Positions 26,917 through 57,190 of a stretch of 64,000 nt of DNA are shown one piece after another. The notes beneath the pieces were generated by a model. The model was not told the DNA's origin and ran no database searches. It saw only the letters and a program-made list of their open reading frames with translations. Location of the stretch: assembly GCA_963843125.1 (NCBI GenBank), contig CAWJIX010000007.1, positions 741,580 through 805,579 of the forward strand. Direction: 5' to 3'. This DNA is from an uncultured Actinomycetota bacterium (GTDB lineage Bacteria; Actinomycetota; Actinomycetes; Mycobacteriales; Mycobacteriaceae). Position 1 is the stretch's first letter, and every line of letters begins with the position of its first letter. A program made the position numbers and the translations under genes.

Positions 26917-26932
26917 GCGTAGTGCGGTACTT
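26917..26932 (-). promoter_or_regulatory. Putative activator box upstream of the neprosin gene
   Basis: AAGTAC-CGCA-CTACGC on the minus strand, 23 nt before TAAGTT (26893-26888). Confidence 0.55.
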
Positions 26933-27269
26933 CAGTTTTGGAAGATCGCCGCGCTGAGTACTGCAGTCCTTTTTCGCGTTCCGTCCTTGTCGTGGAAGAA
27001 AAGTTGCAACAAACATCTCCACGTTCAATGCATTCTCAGACGGCAAGCTCGACACGTGGGCTGATCGGAGCGTGACCGCCCAAGCGCGTTAGGAGGGCAA
27101 CGGCGATCCGGGATGATCGCGGGTCACGCGGCTGACTCGGGTTGGCGGCGAGCGCATTCGCCATCACCGCGAGCTGCAGGGCACCACGATGTCACACCTT
27201 CACGCTCCGCAACATGCAAGCCGGTGCCGGTGCGCGTTTGCCGACGATGTGTACACCGGCCGCAACCTT

Positions 27270-27450
27270 CTATCGGTGTTCGATCACCGACACCGTTCCG
27301 TCGTCCCGATTGGTTACCTAGACGGTGTGTGTGTGCTCGGGTCCACCGCCATCCGGCCGGGGCTCTTGCCGACGACACGGTGGAGGTGACGTACGCGTCG
27401 ACCCATCGATCACCGACACCGCCTTGTCGACCCGCTGACGACGTAGGGCC
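27270..27450 (-). pseudogene. Degraded YVTN beta-propeller repeat gene (3' remnant)
   Basis: 16-bp repeat at 27280 and 27406 (126 bp = 42 codons) encodes VSVI(D/E). Reconstructed DKAVSVIDGSTRT..GKSPGRMAVDPSTH TV*VTNRDDGTVSVIEHR-stop, with frameshifts and a nonsense codon at 27318-27320. Confidence 0.75.
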
Positions 27451-27477
27451 GAGGAGCTGCCCTGACAGCGTCCGTCT

Positions 27478-28626
27478 TCACGGCGACGTTGGATGATCCC
27501 TTTCGCGATCGGCCGCTCGGCGTGGGTCCTCGTGTTGTCCGGCCTCTGTGGTCGTAGTGCCGAAGCGTCGCTCCATTTGCGCGACCGTGACTACTTCGTC
27601 ACGGTCTAGCACCCGGTCAAGCCGGTCGCCGATGGTGAGCGCGACATATCGCCGGGGTTGCGAAACAATGCGAAACCGCTGATGTGGGGTCACTGGGCCG
27701 CTGGGTACCGATTGGATGTCGAGGTCTTCCTGCATCCACCGTCGGAGAGCGCTGCTGCTGACGAGGTCTGCCATGGATTGCTCGCCGTACTCACCGACCA
27801 CGGCGGGCCACCTGTCGATGATTGTCGCGATCGTGGCGGCGGCATCATCGGTGTCCGCTGCGGTGTCACGGCGGGCCCGTCGATAAGCCGACTCATAGTC
27901 GTCCGAGGAGAAGGCCCGCGCGAGTCGCTTGCGTACGTCGCGAGGCGACGCGATTCCTACGAAGATCTGTTCATCGCGCGACCGGACGAACACCAAAGCC
28001 TCGACGTCCGTGTAGTCCTGCGCCAGGGCAGCGACAAGGAAGAGCCTGGTCGACCACCAATAGTCGTCGTTTCGGAGATTGATTTGAAGAAGTTTCGACC
28101 TTCTCTGCACCACCTCCTCCATCGGACCCGACAGCCCGGATGCAGATGAGCCGACAACTGAAGTATCGATGGACGGTTGGCCCTGGCCCATGGCATCCGA
28201 CAGGTCGCCGGCCACGGCTTTGCTGTCACCCGCCATGGGCGCAGCCACTTCTGACAAGTTGAGTTCAACGCCGAAAGCCTTGATGCCGGTTACCCGCTCC
28301 CCGATCACGGCGACGACGACCGGCGCGACCGCCACTACGCCGACGACTACTGCGTGCGCGATCGGCATCCCTATCGCCCACGCCAGGCAACAGCCGAGGG
28401 CGAAGATCGCCATGACTGCGTAACCGGCTGCCGCGGTGCACATCCGCGGATAGAGCAGATACCAACGAAACCATCGAATGCGAACGTGTTCACCCAGCCC
28501 TGCGCCGAACCGCGCGCCGCCGGACGATCCGTGCCGCCGCCAAAGATGAAGCGCTGACGCCATACTCACCCACCCCCTCTGAGCACGACCGTGCGCAACC
28601 GTCGACTCAGATTGATCCGAGTCCAC
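27478..28626 (-). CDS. Hypothetical membrane protein (2 TM helices plus soluble domain; start uncertain)
   Basis: 382-aa ORF; hydrophobic segments near residues 65-107; INLRNDDYWWSTRLFLVAALAQDYT block; C-terminus weakly CBS-like. Confidence 0.65.
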   Translation of the reverse strand: MDSDQSESTVAHGRAQRGWVSMASALHLWRRHGSSGGARFGAGLGEHVRIRWFRWYLLYPRMCTAAAGYAVMAIFALGCCLAWAIGMPIAHAVVVGVVAVAPVVVAVIGERVTGIKAFGVELNLSEVAAPMAGDSKAVAGDLSDAMGQGQPSIDTSVVGSSASGLSGPMEEVVQRRSKLLQINLRNDDYWWSTRLFLVAALAQDYTDVEALVFVRSRDEQIFVGIASPRDVRKRLARAFSSDDYESAYRRARRDTAADTDDAAATIATIIDRWPAVVGEYGEQSMADLVSSSALRRWMQEDLDIQSVPSGPVTPHQRFRIVSQPRRYVALTIGDRLDRVLDRDEVVTVAQMERRFGTTTTEAGQHEDPRRAADRERDHPTSP

Positions 28627-28700
28627 GCGTACGGCGCCACGCGTCCGCTCCAGGTTGTCTCTGTATCGCTGACTATGACCTGTTGCCGAAGAGGCGGCCT

Positions 28701-28716
28701 GCGTAGTGCGCTACGC
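28701..28716 (-). promoter_or_regulatory. Putative activator box upstream of the membrane-protein gene
   Basis: GCGTAG-CGCA-CTACGC (near-palindrome), 23 nt before CATAGT (28677-28672). Confidence 0.55.
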
Positions 28717-28751
28717 CAAGCCGCTTCCCCGGCGCGCGCGACGCTCGCGTA

Positions 28752-29039
28752 TCACTGCTTCCGCAGCAGATCGACCTCGGTGGCCGTCGTGACCCGTTGA
28801 GCCGGGAAGCCGGCGCGGTCGCACGTTTGCACGACGGCGCTAGCCGAGTCGGCGGTGAAGACAGCGAAGAGCACCTCGTCGGTCGGCACGGCGAGCAGGT
28901 TGAGCAGCTTGACCGGAGATCCCTGTGCCGACATCAGCACCGCCGAGTCCGTCAGGCGCGTCACCGTGTCGTCGAGGGGTTCATCCATGACGGCGGAGTG
29001 ATACCACTCGACGAGATAGCAGGGCACCGGAACAGTCAT
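28752..29039 (-). CDS. Small DUF4242/SCO4226-like protein
   Basis: CYLVEWY...LAVPTDEVLFAVF.A.S...V...C.RAG.P.QR pattern; leaderless TAGCGT 7 nt before the ATG. Confidence 0.65.
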   Translation of the reverse strand: MTVPVPCYLVEWYHSAVMDEPLDDTVTRLTDSAVLMSAQGSPVKLLNLLAVPTDEVLFAVFTADSASAVVQTCDRAGFPAQRVTTATEVDLLRKQ

Positions 29040-29075
29040 CGCCTGAACGCTAACCCCGATAGGAACGCCGAAAAA

Positions 29076-29090
29076 TCGGGTGTTTCCCTA
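29076..29090 (-). promoter_or_regulatory. Putative LuxR-type operator
   Basis: TAGGG-AAACA-CCCGA, 23 nt upstream of -10 TAGCGT (29052-29047); overlaps the LAL gene stop codon. Confidence 0.5.
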
Positions 29091-31847
29091 TGCCTTGAGC
29101 TGGCCGACGTGTCGGCCGAGTTCCGCGCGCGAATGGATGCCGAGCTTGGCGTAGATCCGGGCGAGGTTGGATTCAACCGTCTTCGGGCTGATGTACATGG
29201 CGGCGGCGATGTTGCGGTTGGTCATGCCCGACGCGGCGAGTTCGGCCACCCGGCGTTCCGACGGACTGAGGGCCCCCTTGCAGCCGCCGCCGCGGCGGAC
29301 CCGGCCCACCTCGGTGCGGGCGCGGTCGGCCCACAACGGTGTGCCCAACCGCTCGAACGTCTCCAGCGCAGCGTGCAGGCTCTCCGCCGATGCGTCCTTC
29401 AGGCGCTGACGACGCTGGAGCTGGCCCAGCAGCAGCTGGGTGCGGGCCCGTTCGAACGGCATCGGCATGTGTTCGTGCGCCGTCATCGCTCGTTCGACCG
29501 CATCGACTGCCGCCGCGACATCGCCGCGGGCGGCCAGGATCATGCCGCGGCCCCGACCACCCATGGCCAGCATCCAGTCGCGCCGCAGCCGGGCGCCGTT
29601 GCGCTCGAAAGCGGACACCAGCTGCTCGGCGGGCTCCAGCTGATCGAGCGCGACCATCGCCTCCACTGCGTCAGGGATGAACGACGCCGCGATGATCTCC
29701 GTCACCTTCGGCTCCATCCCCACCTTGCGCAGCAGCGGCCCGACCGCATCGAGCGCGGCACGGTATTCACCCAGAGAGACCTCGAGGAAGCCCAGGGCGG
29801 TCGACGGCCATTCCCCCAGCCTGTCGGAGCCGCAGCGCAGATTGGCCGCGCGCGCTTCGGCGATGTCGGACCGCGCGTCCTCGACGCGACCCTGATAGGC
29901 CGCCAGCAGCGCGCGGCCGGTCAGCGCCGCCGAGAGCGGCAGATCGCCACCGAGTTGCTGGGCGAGCTGCATGGTGTCCTCGGCGATGAGGGCGGCTTCG
30001 GCGAATTGTCCCCGCCAGATGTCGACCAGGACGCCGTGGAACGCGACGAGCATCAGCTCGCCTTCCTGGCCGTGATCGATGCAGCGCTTCCGAAGAGCCG
30101 TCAACTCGTCATGAGCCCAGTCGAGCTCACCGGTGCAGGACCGAAGGATCGCGTTGTGAACGCTGGGGCGAAGCGCGAACGGGATATTCGCCTGCTGGTG
30201 CTCCAGCTCCAGCGCCCGCCTGATCCCCGCTTCGTCGAGACCGCTGCCCTGCAGGAGTCGCACCATGGCCCGCATCCCCAGCGCCTGGCTCAGTAGGTCC
30301 GATCGTCCGGCCCCCCGCGCCCGCGCGACGGCCTCGTCGACCCGCTGCGCCGAAGCGTCGAGGCGACCGGCATTGAACAACGCGAACGACAACGTGACCA
30401 ATGTCGGCACCAACACGGCGGGATCGTCGACGGCCTCGTCCAGCGCACCCTCCAGTAGAGCCACCGCTTCGGGAAAACTGTCGTCGAGCAGCCGCACGTA
30501 ACCGAGCAGGCCGGCCGCTTCCGCGCGCAACCGGCCGGGTTCGAGTTGCGCGATCGCCTCCTCGAGAAGGATGCGCGCCCGAGCGGAGTCACCGGCATTG
30601 AAATGGTGACCGGCCGAGCGGATGCGACGCAGCGGTGTATCGCCGCCGAGTCCGATCGCCAGATCGATCAGTTCGGCCGCCGCGGCCGGTGCGCCCCGGC
30701 TGCGTGCCGAATCGGCCGCCGCGTCGAGAGCCTCCAACGTCGCAGAATCGGCGCGCAGCGATCCCAACGCCAGGTGGCGCGCCCGCACTTCGGGTTCGTC
30801 GACGACGGTGGCCAGCCGTCTGTGCATCGCGCGCCGCCGCTCGGGTGCGGCCTCGTTGTAGACGCCGCGAGCGAATATCGGATGGCTGAACCGCAGCTGT
30901 TCGCCGCTGATCTCGACGACCCCGCGGCCCTCGGCGTCCTCGAGCTGCGCGGCGACGGTGTCCGGGTCGGATCGGAGCGCGCGGGCAACGACGCCCATGG
31001 TCGGTGTCGCCAGACAGGCCACGGCGAGCAATGCGTCGTCGACTCCGGCGTCCCGGCCATGGATCCGTGACCGGATCAACTCCGTCAAGCTGTCCGGAAG
31101 GGCGATATCGGCGCCCGGCTGACGCCCCACCATCGCCTTGGCGAGTTCCAGGGCATAGAACGGATTGCCGCGAGAAGCCTCCTCGATGCGCATCATTTCG
31201 GGCCGTGAGAACGTGCGTCCCAGGCGATTCGAGAGCACGACATGCAGTGCGCCGACACTCATGGCGGGCACGGTCATCCGCCGCATTGTGTCGGGCCTCG
31301 GCAGCTGCAACCACGAGCCGGCGCTCTCGCTGTCTCCGATGCGGACGGTGGCGAGCACGCCGACGGGTCCCACGAGCCGACGCGCCAGGAACGTGATCAC
31401 AAGCCGGGTCGAGGAGTCCAGCCACTGCAGATCATCTACTGCGACAAGCACCTTCGCCGTGTCCGCGAGGATGCCGACGACGGACAACAATCCCGCCGAC
31501 ACGGCACGCTGATCTACCGGAAGACGGTCCGCGTCGGCTCGATGAAGGACGCGATCGAGCGCAACCCGTTGCGGCGTGGGCAATTCCGCGAGTACGGATC
31601 GGTCGATGCCGCTCAGCATGTCGGCCAGGGATGCGTACGCGGGCACCGACTCTGCTGCGACGGCCCGAGCGGTCAGCACGCGGAAGCCGTCGGCTTCGGC
31701 TTGGTGTACCGCCTGCAACCACAAGGTGGTCTTGCCGATTCCCGGCTCTCCCTCCATCACCAGGCCGGACGGCGCAGCGACTATGGAGGCCAAGAACTCG
31801 GCAATCGCCGAGGCCTGCGGCTCACGGCTGACCACCTGCGCTGGCAT
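29088..31847 (-). CDS. LAL-family regulator (AAA ATPase, TPR-like region, LuxR HTH)
   Basis: Walker A GEPGIGKTT, Walker B VDDLQWLD, GNPFY, C-terminal LSPSERRVAELAASGMTNRNIA...SPKTVESNLARIYAKLG. Confidence 0.92.
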   Translation of the reverse strand: MPAQVVSREPQASAIAEFLASIVAAPSGLVMEGEPGIGKTTLWLQAVHQAEADGFRVLTARAVAAESVPAYASLADMLSGIDRSVLAELPTPQRVALDRVLHRADADRLPVDQRAVSAGLLSVVGILADTAKVLVAVDDLQWLDSSTRLVITFLARRLVGPVGVLATVRIGDSESAGSWLQLPRPDTMRRMTVPAMSVGALHVVLSNRLGRTFSRPEMMRIEEASRGNPFYALELAKAMVGRQPGADIALPDSLTELIRSRIHGRDAGVDDALLAVACLATPTMGVVARALRSDPDTVAAQLEDAEGRGVVEISGEQLRFSHPIFARGVYNEAAPERRRAMHRRLATVVDEPEVRARHLALGSLRADSATLEALDAAADSARSRGAPAAAAELIDLAIGLGGDTPLRRIRSAGHHFNAGDSARARILLEEAIAQLEPGRLRAEAAGLLGYVRLLDDSFPEAVALLEGALDEAVDDPAVLVPTLVTLSFALFNAGRLDASAQRVDEAVARARGAGRSDLLSQALGMRAMVRLLQGSGLDEAGIRRALELEHQQANIPFALRPSVHNAILRSCTGELDWAHDELTALRKRCIDHGQEGELMLVAFHGVLVDIWRGQFAEAALIAEDTMQLAQQLGGDLPLSAALTGRALLAAYQGRVEDARSDIAEARAANLRCGSDRLGEWPSTALGFLEVSLGEYRAALDAVGPLLRKVGMEPKVTEIIAASFIPDAVEAMVALDQLEPAEQLVSAFERNGARLRRDWMLAMGGRGRGMILAARGDVAAAVDAVERAMTAHEHMPMPFERARTQLLLGQLQRRQRLKDASAESLHAALETFERLGTPLWADRARTEVGRVRRGGGCKGALSPSERRVAELAASGMTNRNIAAAMYISPKTVESNLARIYAKLGIHSRAELGRHVGQLKA

Positions 31848-36817: not shown

Positions 36818-39800
36818 TCATCGCGTGTACACGCCGTCTTCGCCCAGCCTCGACGTCGGATCGAGCAGCATCTCGGCCTCCGCGCGGTTCTCCGGCGCCT
36901 CGTCATCAAGGCGACGGTTGCTTGCGGGCCGCTCGTATAAGGACTTGCCGCCCGCGATCGCCGACGCCAGCCTGCGCTGACCGGCGAACACCCGGGCGTG
37001 AGCCCTCTGCTGGTAGTCCGACCGCTGCTGCGCATCGAGCGCGGCGACGAACGCCTGCGGATGCACCAGCGCGATGACGCCCGAGACGTGACCGAAGCCG
37101 AGGCTGGTGACCAGGCCCGCCTTCAGGGGGTACTTCTCGCCCAGCCGCAGCGTCTCGCGCACCCACACGAAGTGCTCCGAGCCGGCCAACTCGTCGTCGA
37201 CACAGTCCAGGCTGCGGTTCGGCGGGATGACGCCGTCGCGCAGCATCTGGCACATGCCCATCATCTGGAACACCGCCGCGCCGCCCTTGGCGTGACCGGT
37301 CAGGCTCTTCTGCGACACGATGAACAACGGCGCGCCGTCCGACCGGCCCAGCGAGTCGGCGAGCCGCTCATGCAACTCCGTCTCGTTCGGGTCGTTGGCG
37401 AGCGTCGACGTGTCGTGCTTGGAGATGACCGCGATGTCGTCGGCGCCGACACCGAGCTTAGCCAGCGACCGTGCCAGCAGCGAGTCCTTGCCGCCGCGGC
37501 CTGCGCCCAGCGCGCCGAGCCCCGGCGCCGGGATCGAGGTGTGCACGCCGTCGGCGAACGACTGCGCGTACCCGACCACGGCCAGCACCGGCAGACCCAT
37601 CTTCAGCGCGAGGTCGCCGCGGGCCAGCAGGATCGTGCCGCCGCCCTGCGATTCGACGAACCCGAGCCGACGCCGGTCATTGGCCCGGGAGAACTTCGAA
37701 TCGCTGATGCCCCGTGCACGCATCATCTCGGTGTCGGCGGTGGCCGCCATGTCACCGAATCCGATGATCGCCTCCAGCGTCAGGTCGTCGAAGCCGCCCG
37801 TCACCACGAGTTCGGCCTTGCCGAGCCGGATCTTGTCGACGCCCTCTTCGACCGACACCGCCGCCGTCGCGCATGCGCCGACCGGGTGGATCATTGAGCC
37901 GTAGCTGCCGACATAGGACTGGATCACATGCGCCGCAACGACGTTCGGCAGGACCTCCTGCAGAATGTCGTTCGGCTTGTTCCGGCCCAGCAGGTTTCCG
38001 TGGTACATGGTCTGCATCGACGTCATGCCGCCCATGCCGGTGCCCTGTGTGCTGGCCACCATGGTGGGGTGCACCCAGCGCATCAGCTCGTTCGGGGTAA
38101 ATCCCGCGCCGAGGAACGCATCGACGGTCGCGACGATGTTCCACACCGCCACCCGGTCCAGCGACGTGTTCATGTCCGCGCTGATGCCGTACACCGTCGG
38201 GTCGAACCCGGTCGGGATCTGACCGCCGACGGTCCGCGACAGCTTCGTCTTGCGCGGAACCCGAATCTCGGTGCCCGCCTTGCGGGTCACCTGCCAGTCG
38301 CTGCTGTCGGGTACCGGCGTCGCGACGGTGTGCTCCGGGTCGAACTGCACGAACGCCCGCGCGTCGGCCTCCGACGACACCACGAACGTGAAGTCCTTGT
38401 CGAGGAACACCGACACCAGAAGCGGCGACGCGTGGTCGGGGTCGATCGCGCCGTCGTCGACAAACTCGCGGATGCCGGTCCGCTCCACGACGGCGTCGTG
38501 GTAGCGCTCCACCAACTCCGATTCGTCGACCAGATCGCCGGATTCGGTGTCATACCAGCCCGGCTTCGGATCGTCCTCCCACTTGATCAGGCCGGTCGTC
38601 CACGCCAGCTCGAGCACACCGGCGGCCGACAGCTCGTTGTCGACCTCCATCTCGAAGCGGGTGCGCGACGAGCCGTACGGGCCGAGCTCGGCGCCGCCGA
38701 CGATCACCACCATGTCGGCGGGGTCGATGTCGAGGTCCGCCCACTGCGGCGCCGGCGCAGCGGTGAAGCCACGCGGCGGCGACGGCAGCGCGGCGATCGT
38801 GCCGCCCTGCTCCTCGCTGTCCTCGGCACTTTCGGCGGCCATCTCCTCGCGGGCCTTGGCGGCCAGTTCGGACATGTCGATGTCGATATCGCCCAGCCCG
38901 CCGGTCAGGTCGACCTTCAGCGGTTGCTGCGCGGCGGCCACCTTCGACTCGATGCTGCACAGGTCGAGCAGCATCGCGGCCATCTGCTCGGTCGAGTAAG
39001 TGGTGACGCCCGCCTCCTCGACAGCGCTGACGATCGCGTCGTTGGCACCCATCAGGCCGGTGCCGCGGGTCCAGCCGATCAGCGCGTGCGCCAGGCTGAC
39101 GCGCTGCGCCCACGACGATTCGGCGTTCCACCGCGTCACCACCGCATCGAGCGCGGACTTGGATTCGCCGTAGGCGCCATCACCGCCGAACATGCCGCGG
39201 TTCGGAGAGCCGGGCAGCACCACGTGCAGCCGCGACGCGATATCGCGCTCGGCGCCGATGTGCGACAGGCCGCCGATCAGCCGCTGCACGGCCCACAGCA
39301 GCACCTTCATCTCCATCTCCGAGCGCGAGCCGGCCTCCGAGAGGTCACCGGCCACCCGCGGTGCCGCGAACGGGAACAGCAGCGTCGGCGTCTGCGCATC
39401 CTTGAGGTGAATGGACTGCGGCCCAAGGCTTTCGCTCTGCTCATTGCCGACCCAGGCCACCAGCGCGTCGATGTCGGAGTAGGACGCCATGTTGGCGGGC
39501 ACCACCCACAGCGCCGCGCCGAAGCGGGCGTTGTCGCGGTACAGGTCGCGGTAGAACTCGAGTCGGTTGTCGTCGAGCTTGGACGTGGTGGCGATGACGG
39601 TCGCGCCGCCGTCGAGCAGACCGGCGGCCACCGACGCCGCGATCGATCCCTTCGATGCGCCTGTCACCACGGCGATTTCATCGCTGTACCGACCCTTGCC
39701 CGGGTTCTCCGCACCGGCAGCGGCGCGGCCGAACAAGGACGCGTGGACGGTGCGGCCGGCGGCCAGCGCCTTGCCCTGCCACCAGGACGCCTGCTTGCCG

Positions 39801-42800
39801 ACGACGTGACCCGCGCCCTCGAAGCGCTGCGAAAGCTGCTGCCAATTGGCGTCGACCTCGCCTTCGTCCATCAGCCAGAGCTTGACGAGGTCCTCGCGCG
39901 CGCTGGCCCAGCGGTCGTCGAACAGCACCGCCTTACGACCGTCGAACACCGGAGCCACCAAACGTGGCCAGTCCGAACCGAGTTCGGCGGTGACGAGGTC
40001 GATCAGCTCGGCGTCGGTCGCTGCCTCCGGTGTCGAAACCGCGCCGTCCAGCCCCAGCTGGTTCAGGATCGTGCGCGCGGCCGACGCGAGCACGCCGTCG
40101 CGACCGGTGACCTTCTCGGCGAACTCAGTGAGCGCCGCGGAGTCCACCACGCCGCCACCGGCACCGCCGCCTGCCGACGGCAGGGCGACGGCGACACCGC
40201 GCCGGGCAGCGACGGCGGCGACCGCGCTGTCTACGACCTTGTCCACCGTCGCGGCGTCGGCCAGCGCACCGTCGTGCAGGCCACCGAGGCTGCCGCCGCG
40301 GACGCTGGAGCCTTCACGGGTGCCCAGAGCCACCTCGGCCGTCACGTGCTTGACCCAGCCGTCGCCGAGCATCCAGGTCTTCTTGACCCGTTCGGCGATC
40401 GCGGCCGGCCTCCTGCCGGACGGGCCGAGCACCGTGCGCAGCTGGTCGTTGATCGCGTCGGAAAGCACTGAGCCGAAAGGCTTGTACGTCCGCGCGAGCT
40501 TCGTCACCTGACCCTTCAGCCCGGCCAGATCGGCCTCAGCGGCACCGTCGATGGCGCCGAGGTCCAACTCCGAGCCGAGGTCGACCAGCAACTGATTGCG
40601 CCGAGACGACGCACCGTCGGTGATCGACTCGATGGAGTCCAGCGGTTCGATCTGGTCGATGCGCATCTTCGCCGACAGCGCGATCAGCGCCATGGTGGCG
40701 TCGGCGGCGTCGAACGGAATGTCGTCGGGCTGCGGCGTACCCGCAGGCGCGGTAGCCGGAGCGGGTGCCGGTGCGGCCGTCTCGGCGGCGGGCTCGGCCG
40801 CTGCCTCCTGCGCGGGTGTCGGCTCGTCGGCAATGTCGTCGGGCTCGGGATCGGTGTCCGTCGCGAACAACACCGCGGCGTCGCGCTCGGAGTTGAGCAC
40901 TTCCGTTGTGTTGTGCGAATACTCGGGCAGCTTCAGCGTGTTGGTGGCCAGCCCGGCGACGGTCGGTGCGGACTTCACCCCGATCTCGACGAACCGTTCG
41001 ACACCGAGGCCGCCCGCCGCCTCCTCGATGAAGAGCAGGTCCTGCGTCTCGATCCAGCGCACCGGGCTGGCGAACTGCCATGCCAGCAACTCGATGACGA
41101 TCTTGCGGCACAGTTCGGCCGGCTTCTCGTTGCGCCAAGTGTCGTAATCGGCGAGGATCTCGTCGAGCGGCTCGGCGGGCACCAGATCGCGGATCTCCTG
41201 AATGAAGTCGCGGTCGAGTGTGAACGGCCGCGGCACCAGGTTCGGGATGTACTTGCCGATCAGCAGATCCGGGTCCGCGTCGCGCGGCATGACGCGCTCC
41301 AGCGAGCGGCGGAAGTCGGCGACGCCGACCCGCAGCACCGAGGAGTGGAACGGCACGTCGATACCCGGCACCAGGATGAAGGACCGTTTGCCGCCGCTGA
41401 TCTCGCGGCGCTTCTCGACCTCTTCCTCCAGCACCTCGAGCCCGCGCACCGTGCCCGCGATGGCGTACTGCGAGCCGCGCAGGTTGAAGTTCACGATCTG
41501 CAGGAATTCGCCTGTATTCGCCGCGATATTCGCGACGAAGTCGACGACCTCGGAGTCATCGAGGTCGATTTGCGACGGACGGATCGCGGCGAGCCGGTAA
41601 TTGGACCGGCCGAACTCGTCGCGCGGCACGATGTCGTGCATCTTCGAACCGCGGTGGAACACCACCTCGAGCAGCGCCTCGAGCTCGTACACGCCGCTGA
41701 CGCAGGCCAGCGCGGTGTACTCGCCGACGGAGTGACCGCAGGCGATGGCGCCCTCGACGAACGCACCCTGCTCGCGCATCTCGGCGACCTGTGCGGCCGC
41801 CACCGTGGCCATCGCGACCTGGGTGAACTGCGTCAGGTACAGCACGCCCTCGGGGTGCTGATAGTGCACACCGCTGGCGATCAGGCTCGTCGGGTTGTCG
41901 CGCACCACGTGCAGGACCGAGAAGCCCAGCGTCTCGCGGGTGAACTTGTCGGCGGAGTCCCACACCTTGCGGGCGGCCTTGGAGCGGGCCCGCACCTCCA
42001 TGCCCATGCCCTTGTGCTGGATGCCCTGGCCCGGGAATGCATACACGGTCTTCGGCGCGGCCAGCTGTGCCGTCGCCGACATCACCAGGTTGGAGCCGAC
42101 GCGCGCGGCGATCTCGAGAATCTCTGCGCCACGGTCGATCCCGACACGGTCGACGCGGATGTCGACCTCGTCGCCGGGCAACACCATGCCCAGGAAGCGG
42201 GCGGTCCAGCCGACCAGCCTGGCAGGCGGAATGGCCTTGCCATCGGTGGCGGTGACCACCTGCTGGGCGGCGGCGGACAGCCACATGCCGTGCACGATGG
42301 GTGATTCCAGGCCCGCCAGCAGCGCGGCGGCGCGGTCGGTGTGGATCGGGTTGTGGTCCCCGGAGACCACCGCGAACGCGCTCATATCGGCCGGCGCGTT
42401 GACGGTGACATCGCGGCGACGACGCCTGGGCGTGTCGGTCGCGTTGTCGGTCATCGCGCCGCCGGCACGCATCGGATCGGTGAGTTCGACGGCGCCTGTG
42501 CGGCCGCGGATCGCGAACCGCTCCTCGAGCTTGGCCAGCTCCGCACCCTGGGCGTCGTTGATGACGACGGACACCGTCACCACGCGCCCGACCTCGGTGT
42601 CGATGGCGGCGGAAGCCGTTGCAGCGACGGTTAATTCGGTCCGTTGCTTCGGCAACGCGGCCAGCAGATGCGCAGCGTGATCGAGGTGGACCAGGCTCAG
42701 CAGACCCTCCACGACCGGGAAGCCCTCATCGGTAAGGGCCGAGCCGATGACCGAGAACACCGCGGGCCAGCAGAGGCCGACCAGCGCGTCGGGCACCACC

Positions 42801-45800
42801 GTGAGACCGGGCGCCAGCGGCGCGCCGAACGTCGCAGTCACCCCGGTGTGGTCGGCAACCTTCTCCGGATCCCAATCGACGGTGAGCTCAGCGGTGTTGT
42901 TCACGACCGCCGGCAACGCATCGGGGCCGTCGGCGCCCGCGGCGATCGCCAGCACCGAACGCATCGCGCTCGACGCGTCCTCGACGGTGACGACGGGCAT
43001 GCCGCCGTCGACGGTGCAGGCCGGCAACGTGAAGCGGATCGTGATCCAGGTGCCGGAAAGCGGAACGCTCAGCGTGACGGTGTCATCGTCGGACAGCTCG
43101 AGCCGTGCACCCGTGGACGGGTGTGTGGCGGAACGGTTTTGGTTGACCTGCCACTTGGCCGGCTCGCCGATGCGGTGCACCGGGTTGATGGCGGCGCGGC
43201 CCGCCCACAGCACATCGGGCGCATCGAGCACGACGGCCAAGGGGCCGGTCACGTCGCCGCGCGCCTGACGGCGGCTGACCACGGAGACGGGCTCGGCGGA
43301 TTCCGATGCGAGCACGTCGTCGATCGACGCCTTCTCGAACCGGTCGAGCAGGTTGCCGACAGGCTCGTCCATGATCGTGATGCCTGCGACGGCCTGGGTG
43401 CCGGGGATGATGCACACCTGGTCGGCGTCGTAGCGGGCGTCGTGCGCCTGCCACAGCGAGTCGCTGCGCCACCAGCGGCGCACGTCCTTGTCGATGACGG
43501 GCACGAAGTTGACCGGCTTGCCCAGCGTCTTGCACAGCTGGACGAAGAACGGCACATCGGCCGGGTGCAGCTTGATGGTGCCCGCGTCCGGGTAGCGGCC
43601 CAGCAGCGCGGTGATGGCCTGCTCGGGCTTCTCCAACAGCGCTTGGTCGTCGAACAGCGTGTCGATCGGCCCGAAGTCCTTCGGGTGCAAGCGGGCCTCG
43701 GCGCGCTTGAGCATCTCGGCGAACCGGTCACGCCAGGTGTCGGCCAGCCACGGGCTGCCGGGCGCCGCGGTGTCGGCGGTGCTGTCGCCGTCGCCGATCG
43801 CGAGCTCGACATAGCGCCGCAGCCATCCCAGGTACGTCATCTCACCGATGTCGCCGAAGTACGGCTTGCAGGTGTTGGCCATCGCGGCGATGATCTCGTC
43901 GCGGCGGGCGGCGACGGCCTCGGCGTCACCGGCCACCTCGTCGAGCAGCCGGCCGCAACGCGACGCCGTGTTGTCGATCTCGTGGATGTCGGCGCCGAGC
44001 TGGCTGCGGCTGGAAGCCATGCCGCCCTGAGCTTTTCCGGCGCTGATCCAGTGGTCGGTGCCACCGGTCTCAACGAGCATCCGCTTCACCGAGGGCGACG
44101 TCGTGGCCTCGAGAGTGGCCATCGCGGCGGTGCCGACCAGGATGCCGTCGACCGGCATCAGCGGGAAGCCGTATTCCCGGGCCCAGCGGCCGGAGAGGTA
44201 TTCGGCCGACCGCTCGGGTGTGCCGATACCGCCGCCGACGCACACGGTGATGTTCGATCGCGAGCGCAGTTCGGAGTAGGTGGCCAGCAGAAGGTCGTCG
44301 AGGTCCTCCCACGAGTGGTGGCCACCGGCGCGGCCGCCCTCGATGTGCATGATGACCGGCTTGGTCGGCACCTCGGCGGCGATCCGGATCACCGAGCGGA
44401 TCTGCTCGACGGTGCCCGGTTTGAACACGACGTGGCTGATGCCGACCTCGTTGAGCTCCTCGATCAGCGTGACAGCCTCTTCGAGCTCGGGGATGCCCGC
44501 GCTGACGACGACGCCGTCGATCGGGGCGCCGGACTGGCGCGCCTTCTGCACCAGCCGCTTGCCACCGACCTGGAGCTTCCACAGATACGGGTCGAGGAAC
44601 AGCGAGTTGAACTGCACGGCGCGGCCCGGCTCGAGCAGCCGCGTCAGCTCGGCGATGCGGTTGTCGAAGATCTCCTCGGTGACCTGTCCGCCGCCGGCGA
44701 GCTCGGACCAGTGGCCCGCGTTCGCCGCGGCCGCCACGATCTTGGCGTCGACCGTCGTCGGGGTCATGCCCGCGAGCAGGATCGGCGACCGGCCGGTCAG
44801 CCTGGTGAACTTCGTCGACAGCTTCACCGAGCCGTCGGGAAGGGTGACGAGGGTCGGGGCGTAGCTCGACCACGGCTTGGCCACCTCGGGCACCGCGCCG
44901 ACCGTGAACAGGTTGCGTTGTCCGCCACGGGTGGCGGCGGGCACAATTCCGACGCCGAGGCCGCGGATGACCGGCGCTGTCAGCCGGGTGAGGATGTCGC
45001 CGGGACCGAGGTCGAGGATCCAGCGGGCACCCGCCTCGTGCAGGTTGTTGATCTCGCCGACCCAGTCCACCGGGCGCACCAGAATGGCCTCGGCCATCTC
45101 GCGGGCCAGGTCGACATCCAAGCCGACGGCCGCGGCCCAGCCGCCGACCATGTCGACGGCGTCCGACAGCCGTGGCGTGTGGAAGCCGACCTCGACCTGA
45201 ACCGGATCGAATACGGGGCTGAATACCGCGCCGCCGCGAATCTTGTTCTTGCGCTCGGCTTCTTCCTTTTCGGCGATCTGCTCGCAGTAGAGCTCGAAGC
45301 GCGACAGCTGCTCGGGCGTGCCGGTGATGACGACGGAGCGCCTGCCGTTGCGGATGGACAGCACCGGTGGCAGCACGGTGCGGACGTCCTGCGCGAACTC
45401 CTCGAGGAGCTCGGCGATGCGCTCGGGGTCGGCGTTGGTGACCGAGACCATCGGCGGGCGGTCGCCGAGCACCGAGATGCCGCGACGACGGGCCACCAGC
45501 GTGCCCGCGGTTCCGATCAGCTGCGCCATCGCCAGCAGCTCGACGTCCTTGGCGCCCTTGGCCTCCAGCGCCTTGACGCCCAGCACGCCCTGGGAGTGCC
45601 CTGCAACGGCGACGGGTGGTGTCGCGGCGAGGTCCATGCCCTGGCGGCTCATCGCACGCACGGCGGCGATCTGGGTCAGCAACACGCCCGGCACCGACAC
45701 GGCCGCCGACGTCAGATGCTTGGCGCTCGGCACGGCCTCTTCGGCGGCGAGTGCGCGCACCCAGTGCATCGGCTGGAAGCCGATCGGACGCACCACGATC

Positions 45801-46072
45801 AGCTCGCGCGCGACCGGCCCCAGCCGTAGCTCGGCCTCTCCGACCAGCGTCGCCAATTCGGCCTCGATACCCGCCGAGGACACCAGTTCCTCCAGCGTCT
45901 CCAGCCAGGCGCTGCCCTGGCCGCCGAACGCGACGGCATACGGCTCGCCGGCACTCAGACGATCGACGAGGGCGTGGCTGGGCTGAGGCGCTCCCGATTC
46001 GTCATCGCGTCCGGTGGACACTTCCTCTGGCTCCGCCGGGGTACCCCAGTCGTGCTTCTCATTGATCGTCAC
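36818..46072 (-). CDS. fas: Type I fatty acid synthase
   Basis: AT GHSQG, ER GGHHS, DH SGDHNPIH, MPT GHSVGEY, ACP GASSRRNQ, KR TGASKGSI, KS GACATAA/KHDTST/GHAKGG; GAGGAG RBS before GTG 46072. Confidence 0.97.
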   Translation of the reverse strand: MTINEKHDWGTPAEPEEVSTGRDDESGAPQPSHALVDRLSAGEPYAVAFGGQGSAWLETLEELVSSAGIEAELATLVGEAELRLGPVARELIVVRPIGFQPMHWVRALAAEEAVPSAKHLTSAAVSVPGVLLTQIAAVRAMSRQGMDLAATPPVAVAGHSQGVLGVKALEAKGAKDVELLAMAQLIGTAGTLVARRRGISVLGDRPPMVSVTNADPERIAELLEEFAQDVRTVLPPVLSIRNGRRSVVITGTPEQLSRFELYCEQIAEKEEAERKNKIRGGAVFSPVFDPVQVEVGFHTPRLSDAVDMVGGWAAAVGLDVDLAREMAEAILVRPVDWVGEINNLHEAGARWILDLGPGDILTRLTAPVIRGLGVGIVPAATRGGQRNLFTVGAVPEVAKPWSSYAPTLVTLPDGSVKLSTKFTRLTGRSPILLAGMTPTTVDAKIVAAAANAGHWSELAGGGQVTEEIFDNRIAELTRLLEPGRAVQFNSLFLDPYLWKLQVGGKRLVQKARQSGAPIDGVVVSAGIPELEEAVTLIEELNEVGISHVVFKPGTVEQIRSVIRIAAEVPTKPVIMHIEGGRAGGHHSWEDLDDLLLATYSELRSRSNITVCVGGGIGTPERSAEYLSGRWAREYGFPLMPVDGILVGTAAMATLEATTSPSVKRMLVETGGTDHWISAGKAQGGMASSRSQLGADIHEIDNTASRCGRLLDEVAGDAEAVAARRDEIIAAMANTCKPYFGDIGEMTYLGWLRRYVELAIGDGDSTADTAAPGSPWLADTWRDRFAEMLKRAEARLHPKDFGPIDTLFDDQALLEKPEQAITALLGRYPDAGTIKLHPADVPFFVQLCKTLGKPVNFVPVIDKDVRRWWRSDSLWQAHDARYDADQVCIIPGTQAVAGITIMDEPVGNLLDRFEKASIDDVLASESAEPVSVVSRRQARGDVTGPLAVVLDAPDVLWAGRAAINPVHRIGEPAKWQVNQNRSATHPSTGARLELSDDDTVTLSVPLSGTWITIRFTLPACTVDGGMPVVTVEDASSAMRSVLAIAAGADGPDALPAVVNNTAELTVDWDPEKVADHTGVTATFGAPLAPGLTVVPDALVGLCWPAVFSVIGSALTDEGFPVVEGLLSLVHLDHAAHLLAALPKQRTELTVAATASAAIDTEVGRVVTVSVVINDAQGAELAKLEERFAIRGRTGAVELTDPMRAGGAMTDNATDTPRRRRRDVTVNAPADMSAFAVVSGDHNPIHTDRAAALLAGLESPIVHGMWLSAAAQQVVTATDGKAIPPARLVGWTARFLGMVLPGDEVDIRVDRVGIDRGAEILEIAARVGSNLVMSATAQLAAPKTVYAFPGQGIQHKGMGMEVRARSKAARKVWDSADKFTRETLGFSVLHVVRDNPTSLIASGVHYQHPEGVLYLTQFTQVAMATVAAAQVAEMREQGAFVEGAIACGHSVGEYTALACVSGVYELEALLEVVFHRGSKMHDIVPRDEFGRSNYRLAAIRPSQIDLDDSEVVDFVANIAANTGEFLQIVNFNLRGSQYAIAGTVRGLEVLEEEVEKRREISGGKRSFILVPGIDVPFHSSVLRVGVADFRRSLERVMPRDADPDLLIGKYIPNLVPRPFTLDRDFIQEIRDLVPAEPLDEILADYDTWRNEKPAELCRKIVIELLAWQFASPVRWIETQDLLFIEEAAGGLGVERFVEIGVKSAPTVAGLATNTLKLPEYSHNTTEVLNSERDAAVLFATDTDPEPDDIADEPTPAQEAAAEPAAETAAPAPAPATAPAGTPQPDDIPFDAADATMALIALSAKMRIDQIEPLDSIESITDGASSRRNQLLVDLGSELDLGAIDGAAEADLAGLKGQVTKLARTYKPFGSVLSDAINDQLRTVLGPSGRRPAAIAERVKKTWMLGDGWVKHVTAEVALGTREGSSVRGGSLGGLHDGALADAATVDKVVDSAVAAVAARRGVAVALPSAGGGAGGGVVDSAALTEFAEKVTGRDGVLASAARTILNQLGLDGAVSTPEAATDAELIDLVTAELGSDWPRLVAPVFDGRKAVLFDDRWASAREDLVKLWLMDEGEVDANWQQLSQRFEGAGHVVGKQASWWQGKALAAGRTVHASLFGRAAAGAENPGKGRYSDEIAVVTGASKGSIAASVAAGLLDGGATVIATTSKLDDNRLEFYRDLYRDNARFGAALWVVPANMASYSDIDALVAWVGNEQSESLGPQSIHLKDAQTPTLLFPFAAPRVAGDLSEAGSRSEMEMKVLLWAVQRLIGGLSHIGAERDIASRLHVVLPGSPNRGMFGGDGAYGESKSALDAVVTRWNAESSWAQRVSLAHALIGWTRGTGLMGANDAIVSAVEEAGVTTYSTEQMAAMLLDLCSIESKVAAAQQPLKVDLTGGLGDIDIDMSELAAKAREEMAAESAEDSEEQGGTIAALPSPPRGFTAAPAPQWADLDIDPADMVVIVGGAELGPYGSSRTRFEMEVDNELSAAGVLELAWTTGLIKWEDDPKPGWYDTESGDLVDESELVERYHDAVVERTGIREFVDDGAIDPDHASPLLVSVFLDKDFTFVVSSEADARAFVQFDPEHTVATPVPDSSDWQVTRKAGTEIRVPRKTKLSRTVGGQIPTGFDPTVYGISADMNTSLDRVAVWNIVATVDAFLGAGFTPNELMRWVHPTMVASTQGTGMGGMTSMQTMYHGNLLGRNKPNDILQEVLPNVVAAHVIQSYVGSYGSMIHPVGACATAAVSVEEGVDKIRLGKAELVVTGGFDDLTLEAIIGFGDMAATADTEMMRARGISDSKFSRANDRRRLGFVESQGGGTILLARGDLALKMGLPVLAVVGYAQSFADGVHTSIPAPGLGALGAGRGGKDSLLARSLAKLGVGADDIAVISKHDTSTLANDPNETELHERLADSLGRSDGAPLFIVSQKSLTGHAKGGAAVFQMMGMCQMLRDGVIPPNRSLDCVDDELAGSEHFVWVRETLRLGEKYPLKAGLVTSLGFGHVSGVIALVHPQAFVAALDAQQRSDYQQRAHARVFAGQRRLASAIAGGKSLYERPASNRRLDDEAPENRAEAEMLLDPTSRLGEDGVYTR

Positions 46073-46288
46073 GTCTCGTAATCTCCTCGGTCCTGCTTCT
46101 CGCACGTCTCGCGTCGCTTCGTGGCATCTGGGCTGTCGTCTTTGGACGGTGACCTCGCTCCCCTGCGAGACCTCCTACGATTCGGCGTCGAATCCGGGCT
46201 GGTTCTCGGCCCCGTTCGGGCCGTCCAGCGGACACTCCAGCCGTACTAAGAGTGTCATAAGAGCACAGAGGATTTTTCCGCCTGAAAT

Positions 46289-49822: not shown

Positions 49823-49824
49823 CC

Positions 49825-51036: not shown

Positions 51037-51059
51037 CCGGCCAGCCGATCTCGGCGTCC

Positions 51060-53569: not shown

Positions 53570-53585
53570 TGTGACATCTATCACC
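53570..53585. promoter_or_regulatory. CRP-type site
   Basis: TGTGA-CATCTA-TCACC (one mismatch to TGTGA-N6-TCACA). Confidence 0.55.
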
Positions 53586-53645
53586 ACATCGATCTGCAAT
53601 TTCAGCCAACTTCCGACCGAGGTCGCGAGCTATTCCCTGTGTGCG

Positions 53646-53661
53646 GGTGAGTGATCTCACC
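53646..53661. promoter_or_regulatory. CRP-type site
   Basis: GGTGA-GTGATC-TCACC, symmetric GTGA-N6-TCAC. Confidence 0.5.
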
Positions 53662-53747
53662 GGCGCCGGATTGGCGTGCGGGCATTCCGCTACGCGACCA
53701 TGTAGAGGCCGGTCATTAAGACAAAATCAGCTACGAGAGGTAGTCGC

Positions 53748-55025: not shown

Positions 55026-55192
55026 CCGAGCTACCTGTTGCGGCTGGAAGCCGCCGAAGTCGCGACGGTGGATGTGGACCGACCCCTAATGAAACGGCGG
55101 CCGCTGCTTGACCAGACCCCTCGGCTGCTCGCCATCGCGAGACTGTGGTGCCGCTCACAATCACCGCGCAACTTCGACGGCTGTCAAAGGGG

Positions 55193-56467
55193 TTAACCCG
55201 TGCCGCGGTCAGCTAAACGCTGCGCGATGGCCTCCTCGGCGTGCCGGTAGCCGAGCAACTCGTAGCCGACAACGGTCACCGCGGGAGCCAGCATGACGAT
55301 CAGCAGGGCATTGGCCATCGACATGCCCCGCCCGACGAAGACCACCGCCACGATCAGCACTGCGACGGTGAGAACGACGAGGAGCAAGTGGAACGGGTCC
55401 CGCGTCCGGAGCAGCCACATATAGAGCAGGTAGACCGCACCGATGAAGATCGCCACCGGTATCGCCACCGACAGCACGGTGCCCACCGCGTCCAGTTTCG
55501 AATGGTGCTCGACGTAGTAGGCGGCGGCGTGCAGACCGGCGCCGGTGCCCACGATCGCCCCGAACACCACCAGGTGCAGATAGCCGAACCGAAACGACAA
55601 ATCTCGACGGGCGTGCAGCAGTTGCGACTGGGGCACGATGAAATACACCCACCACATACCGAATGTCAGGCCGGTGCCGGCCACGGCGACCAGAACGGCT
55701 GACACGCTCCACCCCTGCGCGGAGACGACGGCCGACAGCGAGGCGACAGTGCCGACAACCCCTTCACCGAGCGCGATGATGGTGAGCAGCGAATAGCGTT
55801 CGGCGATGTGATGTGCGTGCCACGGGGTGCCGCCCATGCGCCGCTCGGCCAGCCATGGGCCGAACATCTCGAAAGCCACCAAGGCGGCGGCCCACGCAAA
55901 CGTCGTCAGGACGGACGTGCTGACCACGATCATGACGATCCAGCCGATTTGCGCGACGGTGACCACGGTGGCGTAAGTCAGGCACGCCGCCCGTCGCTGC
56001 GGATCCTGCTTGGCGGCCCGTAACCACTGCGCCATCAAGGCGATTCGCATCACCACATAGCCGGCCACCATCACCCGGTTGTCGACGTGGCGCCCTTCGG
56101 CGATGGACGAGTACATCGCGGGCAGGCCGAGCGACAAGATGATGACGCCGACCATCTGCACCATCGTCGTCACGCGGTAGATCCAATCGTCGGTGTCGTA
56201 GGCCGACGCGAACCAGCTGAAGTTGATCCATGCCCAGCAGATGGAGAACGTCGCGAAGACGAACGCGCCCAGTCCCGCGGCGATGTGGTCATCGGCGAGT
56301 TGATGGGCGAACTCCGAGGCGGCGATGCCGAAGCCGATGACGAAGGTGAGGTCGAACAGCAGCTCCAACGGCGTAGCCGCCCGATGTGCCTCATCAGGGT
56401 CGCGCCCGGACATCTTGCGGATGCGATGCACCTCGACGCGCTTGGCTGGATGCTCGACCTCACTCAT
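55193..56467 (-). CDS. ltrA: Low-temperature requirement protein A family membrane protein
   Basis: ATPLELLFDLTFV, WINFSWF, HHIAERYSLLTIIALGE. Confidence 0.88.
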   Translation of the reverse strand: MSEVEHPAKRVEVHRIRKMSGRDPDEAHRAATPLELLFDLTFVIGFGIAASEFAHQLADDHIAAGLGAFVFATFSICWAWINFSWFASAYDTDDWIYRVTTMVQMVGVIILSLGLPAMYSSIAEGRHVDNRVMVAGYVVMRIALMAQWLRAAKQDPQRRAACLTYATVVTVAQIGWIVMIVVSTSVLTTFAWAAALVAFEMFGPWLAERRMGGTPWHAHHIAERYSLLTIIALGEGVVGTVASLSAVVSAQGWSVSAVLVAVAGTGLTFGMWWVYFIVPQSQLLHARRDLSFRFGYLHLVVFGAIVGTGAGLHAAAYYVEHHSKLDAVGTVLSVAIPVAIFIGAVYLLYMWLLRTRDPFHLLLVVLTVAVLIVAVVFVGRGMSMANALLIVMLAPAVTVVGYELLGYRHAEEAIAQRLADRGTG

Positions 56468-56523
56468 GATCTGCAGAGTTTGCCCAGCCGCCGCGACACT
56501 GTCCAACGAGCCGACGCGGAAAG

Positions 56524-56539
56524 AAGTAGTCGACTACGC
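56524..56539 (+). promoter_or_regulatory. Putative activator box upstream of the SARP-like gene
   Basis: AAGTAG-TCGA-CTACGC, 23 nt before CATGAT (56563-56568). Confidence 0.55.
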
Positions 56540-56604
56540 ATGCCGTCGCGCCGCGTGCTTCGCATGATCGACCGCAGAGGCCGGACGAGATGGAGGCAGG
56601 CGTG

Positions 56605-57111
56605 ATGTCGGAACAGTTCACGATCACCATGCTGGGTGGGTTTGAGGTCTACCGCGACGGTCAGTTGCTCGACGTGCCGCCTTCATGCCAGCGGTTGATA
56701 GCGCTCGCCGCGCTGAAACGCCGGACAGTGCCCCGCAGCTGGGTATGCCGCACGCTGTGGCCGACGACGCGGCCCGATCGGGCGACGGCGCGCTTGCGCA
56801 CGACGCTGTGGCGGCTGCGCCCGATGGGGGCCGACACCATGCTGACGGTCACCCCGCAGTCGATCGCTATCGCGCCCGACGTGTCGGTGGACTGGTACGA
56901 CTCGGTGGATCTGATCGGTCAACTGCTGGGTCATCGCGAACCGGCCGGGCCGGATCGAGACGTCGCGGGCGAATTGCTTCCGCTGTTGCAAGCGGGCGCA
57001 CTGCTCGACGGGTGGGCCGACGACTGGACGGCATACGCCAGGGACACCTATCGGGAACTCAGGCTCGACGCGCTCGACAGGCTCATGGGCGCATGTGCAC
57101 AGAACGGGTAG
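56605..57111 (+). CDS. SARP/AfsR-like regulator, short (winged helix plus partial BTAD)
   Basis: ITMLGGFEV, LWP...A.ARLRTTLWRLR, LLDGWADDW...RELRLDAL; ends before the usual BTAD TPR helices. Confidence 0.75.
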   Translation: MSEQFTITMLGGFEVYRDGQLLDVPPSCQRLIALAALKRRTVPRSWVCRTLWPTTRPDRATARLRTTLWRLRPMGADTMLTVTPQSIAIAPDVSVDWYDSVDLIGQLLGHREPAGPDRDVAGELLPLLQAGALLDGWADDWTAYARDTYRELRLDALDRLMGACAQNG

Positions 57112-57121
57112 TGCGCTACGC
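57106..57121 (+). promoter_or_regulatory. Putative activator box upstream of the 38-aa gene
   Basis: GGGTAG-TGCG-CTACGC, 24 nt before TACGAT (57146-57151); contains the SARP stop codon. Confidence 0.55.
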
Positions 57122-57190
57122 GTGCGTGTCGCTGTGAACGATTCCTACGATTTCATCGTCAAATAGGTACACAGAGATTGGACCAGAGCT

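Follow-up and report, generated by a model that had tools for sequence, protein, structure and literature searches.

A 64,000-nucleotide stretch of DNA from an uncultured member of the Mycobacteriaceae (the window; assembly GCA_963843125.1, contig CAWJIX010000007.1, positions 741,580 to 805,579 of the forward strand) contains four copies of a 16-bp inverted repeat, RRGTAGYSSRCTACGC, each located 23 or 24 nt upstream of a predicted -10 hexamer. This element (the box) is very probably the operator of a transcriptional activator that controls a regulon. The core of the regulon would consist of a gene encoding a truncated SARP-like regulator and, behind it, a gene encoding a 38-aa membrane peptide, while the lineage-specific periphery in the window would consist of a membrane-protein gene and a neprosin-family peptidase gene. 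A dimeric activator would bind the repeat next to the weak -35 element of otherwise housekeeping-type promoters and recruit RNA polymerase through sigma region 4 and/or the alpha C-terminal domain in a class II-like manner. The preferred binder is the SARP-like protein, which would act as a symmetric dimer and positively regulate its own gene. As a whole (activator operator, regulon of core and periphery, SARP-like dimer as the binder), the proposal is tentative and somewhat less than probable. The operator and the regulon are apparently undescribed, and the mechanism is of a familiar kind. A full-text literature search with five variants of the box, or with GTAGT/ACTAC combined with mycobacteria, inverted repeat and LuxR, returned no paper, in agreement with the view of an earlier reading of the window from its letters alone (the sequence-only reading) that the box is undescribed. 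A literature search for a small SARP together with a membrane peptide in mycobacteria likewise found no paper.

The probable operator and its promoter geometry

All four boxes are present where the sequence-only reading had placed them. Box 1 (promoter P4; 26917..26932, minus strand; AAGTACCGCACTACGC) precedes the neprosin gene and is the weakest site, with GTAC in its distal half and a position weight matrix (PWM) score of 21.9. Box 2 (P3; 28701..28716; GCGTAGCGCACTACGC) is a palindrome whose outer halves are both perfect and lies upstream of the membrane-protein gene, which is on the minus strand. Box 3 (P1; 56524..56539, plus strand; AAGTAGTCGACTACGC) is found upstream of the SARP-like gene and has a perfect 12-bp palindrome, GTAGTCGACTAC, as its core. 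Box 4 (P2; 57106..57121, plus strand; GGGTAGTGCGCTACGC) overlaps the TAG stop codon of the SARP-like gene. The pattern RNGTASNNNNCTACGC gives five strand-hits in the window against 0.03 expected, and exact GTAG-N4-CTAC occurs three times against 0.12 expected (300 Markov simulations); a chance origin of the boxes is ruled out by these counts. The hexamer CTACGC by itself occurs 31 times in the window against 25.8 expected and is not enriched, so the signal resides in the whole box. No further site in the window scores 12 or more with a PWM built from all collected box instances.

The consensus of the element is GCGTAGT-NN-ACTACGC (for example GCGTAGT-GC-ACTACGC), which consists of two 7-bp half-sites in inverted orientation separated by a 2-bp gap. 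The promoter-proximal half-site is always the better half, and the promoter-distal half is relaxed to RRGTAGY. Several sites are perfect 12-bp palindromes.

The spacings of 23, 23, 23 and 24 nt given by the sequence-only reading were confirmed by direct reading. On the minus strand, TAAGTT (26888..26893) lies 23 nt past box 1 and CATAGT (28672..28677) lies 23 nt past box 2, with predicted transcription starts at about 26881 and 28665; on the plus strand, CATGAT (56563..56568) lies 23 nt past box 3 and TACGAT (57146..57151) lies 24 nt past box 4, with predicted starts at about 56575 and 57158. Directly abutting box 3 is a weak -35-like hexamer, ATGCCG (56540..56545, plus strand), with a 17-nt spacer to the -10 hexamer, and nnGCCG is found at this position, as a weak -35 hexamer with a 17-nt spacer, in most independent promoters. 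A scan with the sigma-70 consensus found no canonical -35/-10 pair at any of the four sites, in keeping with the earlier remark that none has an obvious -35, and a canonical sigma-70 promoter is ruled out. In all promoters the end of the box is 23-24 nt from the -10 hexamer which puts its centre at a predicted position of about -43.5, abutting the -35 and within the range of about 41-45 bp before the start that characterises class II-type sites. The sequence-only reading had also proposed class II-like geometry with the centre near -44, which stands, and overlap with the -35 region, which does not, because the box abuts the -35 hexamer. Among 12 non-orthologous or distantly orthologous promoters, NANNNT lies 23-24 nt past the box in every one. 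Since the spacing varies by no more than 1 nt across at least 12 unrelated promoters, all of which lack a good -35, activation is favoured over repression.

A conserved core: the SARP-like gene and the 38-aa gene

The SARP-like gene (56605..57111, plus strand) encodes a protein of 168 aa that comprises an OmpR-type winged helix and the first BTAD helices. Its start had been placed at 56590; the start is instead ATG 56605, as the homologues all begin MSEQF, and an identical protein is present in public collections. The 38-aa gene (57191..57307, plus strand) encodes a peptide that has a single hydrophobic helix and whose C-terminal tail, RLERWDYERHAED, is invariant. Every orthologous locus retains the peptide, with synonymous changes at the DNA level, and gene finders call it in public data; the open reading frame (ORF) is a real gene. 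It is followed by a PNPOx-family gene (about 57379-57801; Pfam).

The comparison covered the 64 kb of the window and up to 20 kb around each related site in other genomes. Ten orthologous loci with SARP-like identities of 54-86% were read (listed as L001-L005, L009, L011, L012 and L146); the related loci come from Mycolicibacterium moriokaense, M. agri, and Mycobacterium genomes and metagenome-assembled genomes, from which the source of the window is taken to be an environmental mycobacterium. All orthologous loci contain the pair of SARP-like and 38-aa genes, usually beside LtrA and near the fatty-acid synthase gene. The sequence-only reading had described all four genes behind the boxes as accessory, which is correct for the membrane-protein and neprosin genes but not for the SARP-like and 38-aa genes, which form a conserved syntenic core pair.

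The P1 box reads RGGTAGYSSRCTACGC, identically or nearly so, in ten of ten orthologous loci, and the 40 nt upstream of it have diverged, with insertions and deletions. In the orthologue alignment, the majority fraction is 0.94 for the P1 box, 0.88 for the next six bases (the -35-like hexamer) and 0.77 for the -10 hexamer, against 0.51-0.57 for the flanks (0.51 for the 40 nt upstream). In L011, L012 and L146, GACGAT or CACGAT lies 23 nt past the box and exactly 6 nt before the called ATG or GTG start, and these transcripts are predicted to be leaderless, with the layout seen in mycobacterial leaderless transcripts. This layout supports the assignment of the -10 hexamer and places the box at about -51 to -36; the transcription start positions given here derive from these three orthologues. 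The P2 box is kept with 0-1 mismatch in seven loci (L001-L004, L009, L011 and L012), is weaker in L146 (AGGTACCTAACTACTC, 24 nt before TACGCT) and has been lost in L005. TANNNT lies 23-24 nt past the P2 box in L001-L004, L011, L012 and L146. The earlier suggestion of a regulon that ties island genes to a locus 30 kb away is supported by a box that is footprinted in orthologues and by a spacing that is kept in non-homologous promoters and in other genomes.

The P2 spacer, GCGTGTCGCTGTGAACGAT (window 57122-57165), is invariant in seven genomes (the window, L001-L005 and L009) and is better conserved than the adjacent coding sequence. Taken with TCGTC-AATAG, it can be read as GTGAAC-N17-CGTC, which resembles an ECF-sigma promoter. 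In L005, the equivalent of box 4 and TACGAT are gone and the GTGAAC-N17-CGTC motif is retained. This stretch could be a second promoter or a leader element. An ECF-type promoter for the whole set was considered and rejected, as the motif occurs only in P2 of close relatives and is missing from the other promoters and from distant P2.

Some boxes are translated. In SARP-like variants of 195 aa (among P0101-P0120; L011 10500-10588), the frame reads through the next box, which is translated as the conserved peptide QVA(H/N)YAC, and some mis-called N-terminal extensions of SARP-like proteins (P0110, 'QVVDYAC') are translated P1 boxes.

Probable lineage-specific targets in the window

The membrane-protein gene (27478..28563, minus strand) encodes a protein of 361 aa without a Pfam family; the public call, P0121, starts at ATG 28563. 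Upstream of it are a LAL-type regulator gene (29088..31847, minus strand; AAA_16, TPR and GerE helix-turn-helix by Pfam) and, after the LAL gene, a 95-aa gene (28752-29039), both of which read towards box 2. The LAL protein is a candidate binder or a co-located member of the regulon. In L016/L017, the promoter of the membrane-protein gene (86% identity) has the box ACGTAGCGGTCTACGC 23 nt upstream of CATATT, and the order of LAL, 95-aa gene, box and membrane-protein gene is kept. Box 2 is symmetric, and GACGCT lies 23 nt past it on the plus strand (window 28701-28745); this side could be a second promoter, antisense into the operon of the 95-aa and LAL genes.

The neprosin-family gene (25467..26849, minus strand; 460 aa; Pfam PF03080, E 1.1e-41) has an AGGAGG ribosome-binding site before its start, ATG 26849. 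Window G+C content is 61-72% and dips to 0.615 over 24-28 kb. The low-G+C neprosin gene comes after a tRNA-Lys(CTT) gene (24622-24695) and, next to this tRNA gene, an integrase remnant (24739-25416), which is a fragmentary ORF with pieces of rve_3 and Phage_integrase. The region 24622-25416 bears the signature of a decayed genomic island carrying the neprosin gene; an island-context search for an att-like repeat of the tRNA end found none. L016 has the LAL, 95-aa and membrane-protein genes as in the window but lacks the segment with tRNA-Lys, integrase and neprosin genes, which makes the neprosin promoter the youngest and weakest member of the set. The neprosin promoter of the closest homologue (L027, 84%) has the box AGGTATCGCACTACTG 23 nt upstream of TACGTT. 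The box is absent at neprosin homologues of 77% identity or less, and the neprosin site is therefore young.

Codons 22-45 of the neprosin gene (26715-26786) contain three 18-nt tandem repeats that encode a lysine-rich N-terminal (A/P)KKTSV repeat, a stretch that is missing from most neprosin homologues (413-420 aa long). The neprosin promoter and the membrane-protein gene are separated by about 545 nt (26933-27477) that contain no convincing ORF and carry a 29-nt direct repeat (27280-27308 and 27406-27434). The window also carries a type I fatty-acid synthase gene (36818-46105, minus strand), an L,D-transpeptidase gene and the LtrA gene, and positions 20066-20183 on the minus strand match the actinobacterial small RNA Ms_IGR-7 of Rfam with 48.2 bits (gathering score 45).

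Box promoters in other genomes and metagenomes

In L018-L020, a homologue of the membrane-protein gene (61% identity) is found in a different context that resembles a mobile element, with a ParB-like gene and DUF2637 as neighbours, and is preceded by CAGTAGCGCACTACGC 23 nt upstream of CAGAAT. A second box in these loci lies 23 nt upstream of TAGCTT, before a gene of the endonuclease/exonuclease/phosphatase family. In this plasmid-like sequence or integrative and conjugative element-like sequence (L018 1-5080; also L019 and L020), the two promoters have in common the 8 nt before the box and CTACGCTAGCCG past it (GCGCATTGCAGTAG....CTACGCTAGCCG), which suggests that the entire promoter module was duplicated. 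L012 has a third box, 23 nt upstream of TACGGT, before a 106-aa gene.

The membrane-protein homologue of L013-L015 has no full box, only TCGACTAC-ATGCCG. In L013 (838-9372; 9663-9690), this homologue is oriented divergently from a pair of full-length SARP genes, behind which come large genes whose products carry a domain of extracellular contractile injection systems (eCIS_core). In the region between the divergent genes, TCGACTAC-ATGCCG represents a proximal half-box plus the -35-like hexamer, with 2 nt missing, and CAGGCT comes after a further 17 nt. This is a possible half-site remnant or may be a half-site for a SARP heterodimer.

A metagenome collection was scanned for GTAGYGSRCTACGCNNGCCG with no requirement for a -10 hexamer, which gave 120 matches, most of them chance matches and from many taxa. 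Among the 73 distinct matches, NANNNT peaks at offset 23, with 10 against about 2.3 per offset. For the 24 matches with an RR left flank, a feature that had not been selected, NANNNT is at offset 23 or 24 in 11, while each control offset accounts for about 2.4%. The enrichment of spacing whose absence, by the sequence-only reading, would have spoken against the regulon is therefore present at 23-24 nt without selection for the -10.

The fitting metagenome sites, on mycobacterial contigs, are intergenic and point into about ten unrelated genes. The putative targets include a NarL-like orphan response regulator (three contigs), a WD40 protein, a membrane transporter-like protein, a catalase-like protein, a phosphorylase-superfamily protein, an alpha/beta hydrolase, a 113-aa protein, an adenylate cyclase and another SARP-like gene. 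Cluster members of two of the target proteins are named Mycobacterium sp. A rescan with the PWM located second boxes, divergent or tandem and with the same spacing, in L059, L080 and L084. Elsewhere, the periphery of the regulon would take in LAL regulators, the NarL-like orphan response regulator, adenylate cyclase, hydrolases and the catalase-like protein. In a plasmid collection, homologues of the SARP-like protein were from Streptomyces only, and the one match to the membrane protein was a fragment, without a neighbouring box, on a plasmid of M. avium.

LAL proteins of one subfamily recur in box-driven cassettes (L084 2287-5571, L080 3247-6959 and L075 4852-7300), each with a different enzyme gene, alpha/beta hydrolase among these. 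A cassette gene beside the phosphorylase-like protein is one that we take, from its sequence by eye, to encode a papain-like peptidase, and a gene beside the catalase-like protein is, on the same basis, presumably peroxidase-like. In L084, the LAL stop codon TAG is inside a box, as is the case for the SARP-like stop codon in the window.

Candidate regulators and alternative explanations

The sequence-only reading had named a NarL/LuxR-type protein or the SARP-like protein as the possible regulator, and both remain candidates; the SARP-like protein is preferred here, tentatively. A box precedes the gene for this protein in every locus, with a further box at the stop codon (P2). Its winged helix is highly conserved, with R70, R72 and P73 invariant, matching the invariance of the box, and the membrane-protein family adjoins two full-length SARP paralogues in L013-L015. 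The AlphaFold model of the protein has a pLDDT confidence of 70.6 overall, 75-94 in the winged helix (residues 11-90) and 43-61 in the C-terminal helices. Its top Foldseek matches are EmbR (2ff4) and AfsR (8hvr/8k60), followed by the DNA-binding domains of OmpR/PhoB and ArlR, and model and matches both indicate an N-terminal winged helix of the OmpR type. By sequence, the match to AfsR has an E value of 0.06, and the whole length of the protein aligns with 34-35% identity to the two Pfam-BTAD SARPs of L013. The alignment ends about 90 residues short, past the first BTAD helices, so that the BTAD domain is not complete, and the protein has no Pfam BTAD match. Its homologues are named 'SARP family activator' in source records.

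In its most specific form, this proposal has a 168-aa SARP-like dimer on the 7-2-7 palindrome, one helical turn upstream of the position of described SARPs, driving its own gene and the 38-aa peptide gene (the peptide may feed back on the protein) and providing a common output for acquired genes of islands and plasmid-like elements, among them several LAL/STAND regulators, an adenylate cyclase and secreted hydrolases. Such a combination is rather unlikely to hold in full.

Several points weigh against the SARP-like protein as the binder or against the proposal more broadly. The 9 bp between half-site centres is tight for two winged helices, which are usually 10-11 bp apart. This spacing is typical of small GerE-type helix-turn-helix dimers (NarL 7-2-7, PMC7419079). 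The direct repeats bound by canonical SARPs take the place of the -35 and end 8 nt before the -10 hexamer (PMC11301090), whereas the element here is an inverted repeat 23-24 nt upstream of the -10, and comparison of orthologues revealed no conserved direct repeat in the spacer. Dimerisation of the SARP-like protein is a guess, given the low confidence of the model in its C-terminal half. In four independent contexts, box promoters have an LAL gene as their neighbour. Finally, promoter starts, binding and expression are all predicted from sequence.

A doubtful but quite possible alternative leaves the function and geometry of the operator unchanged and assigns binding to a GerE/LuxR-type helix-turn-helix protein, for example an LAL such as that of 29088-31847, or a NarL-like response regulator; the SARP-like and 38-aa genes would then be conserved targets. 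A 16-bp 7-2-7 inverted repeat that abuts the -35 with its centre at about -43.5 suits such a protein, and in M. tuberculosis the DevR/DosR box proximal to the promoter overlaps the -35 (PMC3029386). In the window, where the LAL gene reads towards box 2, and in L016/L017, a box promoter has an LAL gene next to it. One LAL subfamily (45-53% identity) is found in the box-driven operons of L084, L080 and L075, which would amount to autoregulation, and the gene for the NarL-like orphan regulator is behind a box in three contigs. However, the LAL proteins of the window and L084 are only 27% identical, too different to be one regulator, while the box is constant; their recognition helices, presumably, also differ, as read by eye. 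No GerE gene is found within 10 kb of the SARP-like locus in 10 genomes, and around a Nocardia LAL orthologue of 48% identity, from the plasmid collection, no box lies within 6 kb. Those GerE-type genes that are close to boxes differ strongly from one another and are themselves behind boxes; therefore, they resemble targets.

It is improbable that another conserved regulator, neither SARP-like nor GerE-type and encoded at some other place in these genomes, binds the box. Palindromes of 16 bp are sites for many helix-turn-helix families, and the reading was confined to the window and the surroundings of related sites, but no specific candidate is indicated. A MerR-family gene is kept near the SARP-like locus. 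Members of the MerR family are expected inside the -35/-10 spacer rather than upstream of it, which weighs against MerR as the binder.

With the SARP-like protein still preferred, the sign of regulation has also to be weighed. Palindromic operators are common among repressors, and sequence alone carries no sign of regulation, so the bound protein might block access of polymerase upstream of the -35. Repressor sites, however, need no registration such as the -10 distance that is constant here, and they usually cover the -35, the -10 or the start site; repression is very improbable.

Least credible of all is a box that is not bound by protein, whether as a chance palindrome, a small RNA hairpin, a terminator, a mobile repeat or a piece of a promoter for an alternative sigma factor: a 6-bp hairpin can form from GCGTAG-N4-CTACGC, box 4 is located at a stop codon and the P2 spacer of close relatives has the ECF-sigma-like GTGAAC-N17-CGTC, but chance is excluded by the counts, the sites have no T-run, terminator-like call or Rfam family, no extended repeat is common to the box flanks, a 23-nt spacer is too long for the box to serve as a -35 element, and the ECF-like motif is missing from P1, P3 and P4 and from P2 of L011, L012 and L146. 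An extended repeat or the end of a mobile element was likewise ruled out, as the flanks of the boxes are unrelated.

Implications

Comparison of sequences by itself yielded a sharply defined operator, a promoter geometry, a core target pair and a list of peripheral targets. M. tuberculosis and M. smegmatis aside, no binding site is known, to our knowledge, for most mycobacterial transcription factors. The system is directly testable since it is carried by the culturable species Mycolicibacterium agri and M. moriokaense. The peripheral targets are largely horizontally acquired (the tRNA-Lys island, the ParB-bearing element and the LAL-containing cassettes), which makes the system a clear example of foreign genes that recruit a host regulator by means of a short and portable promoter module. 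Should the truncated SARP-like protein be the binder, the repertoire of DNA recognition by SARPs would widen. The more interesting question is whether or not a truncated SARP reads a palindrome; if a SARP-like dimer does so, the SARP family would gain a new mode of DNA recognition and a new promoter geometry, and environmental mycobacteria would have a 'plug-in' regulon for mobile cargo.

Comparison with known systems

The NarL sites of the Escherichia coli yeaR-yoaG and ogt promoters are, like the box, 16-bp 7+2+7 inverted repeats that form one dimer site (PMC7419079). Both NarL sites and the proximal DevR/DosR box lie, as the box does, upstream of or abutting the -35 at about -44 (PMC7419079, PMC3029386). 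The promoters of both regulators have a poor -35 and are activator dependent (PMC7419079, PMC3029386); the promoters here have no canonical -35, and their dependence on an activator is what we infer. Unlike the NarL and DosR systems, no two-component partner is evident here, no single conserved GerE protein is tied to the box and the promoter-proximal half is always the better one. The half-site GCGTAGT differs from that of DosR, and the absence of a DosR match noted in the sequence-only reading is upheld. It also differs from the NarL half-site consensus TACYYMT (PMC7419079).

The likeness to SARPs, as exemplified by AfsR at afsS, lies in the neighbouring gene, which encodes an OmpR-type winged helix with BTAD helices and has EmbR and AfsR as its best structural matches, and in a promoter-proximal activator (proposed here) at promoters without a good -35. 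SARP and LuxR/LAL regulators co-occur, as in antibiotic clusters. The protein here differs in its length of only 168 aa and in its BTAD domain, from which the C-terminal half is missing. At SARP promoters the site consists of direct repeats, overlaps the -35 and ends 8 nt before the -10 (PMC11301090), whereas the site here is an inverted repeat that ends 23 nt before it.

HP1043 (HsrA) of Helicobacter pylori is an atypical member of the OmpR family. Its hexamers have a spacing of 11 bp and lend themselves to a reading as direct repeats as well, dimerisation is through a receiver-like domain rather than BTAD helices, and in sequence context it is unrelated. HP1043 acts independently of phosphorylation as a two-fold symmetric dimer, modelled head-to-head (PMC8345958). 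Its site overlaps promoter elements, and it provides a partial precedent for symmetric binding by an OmpR-type protein (PMC8345958).

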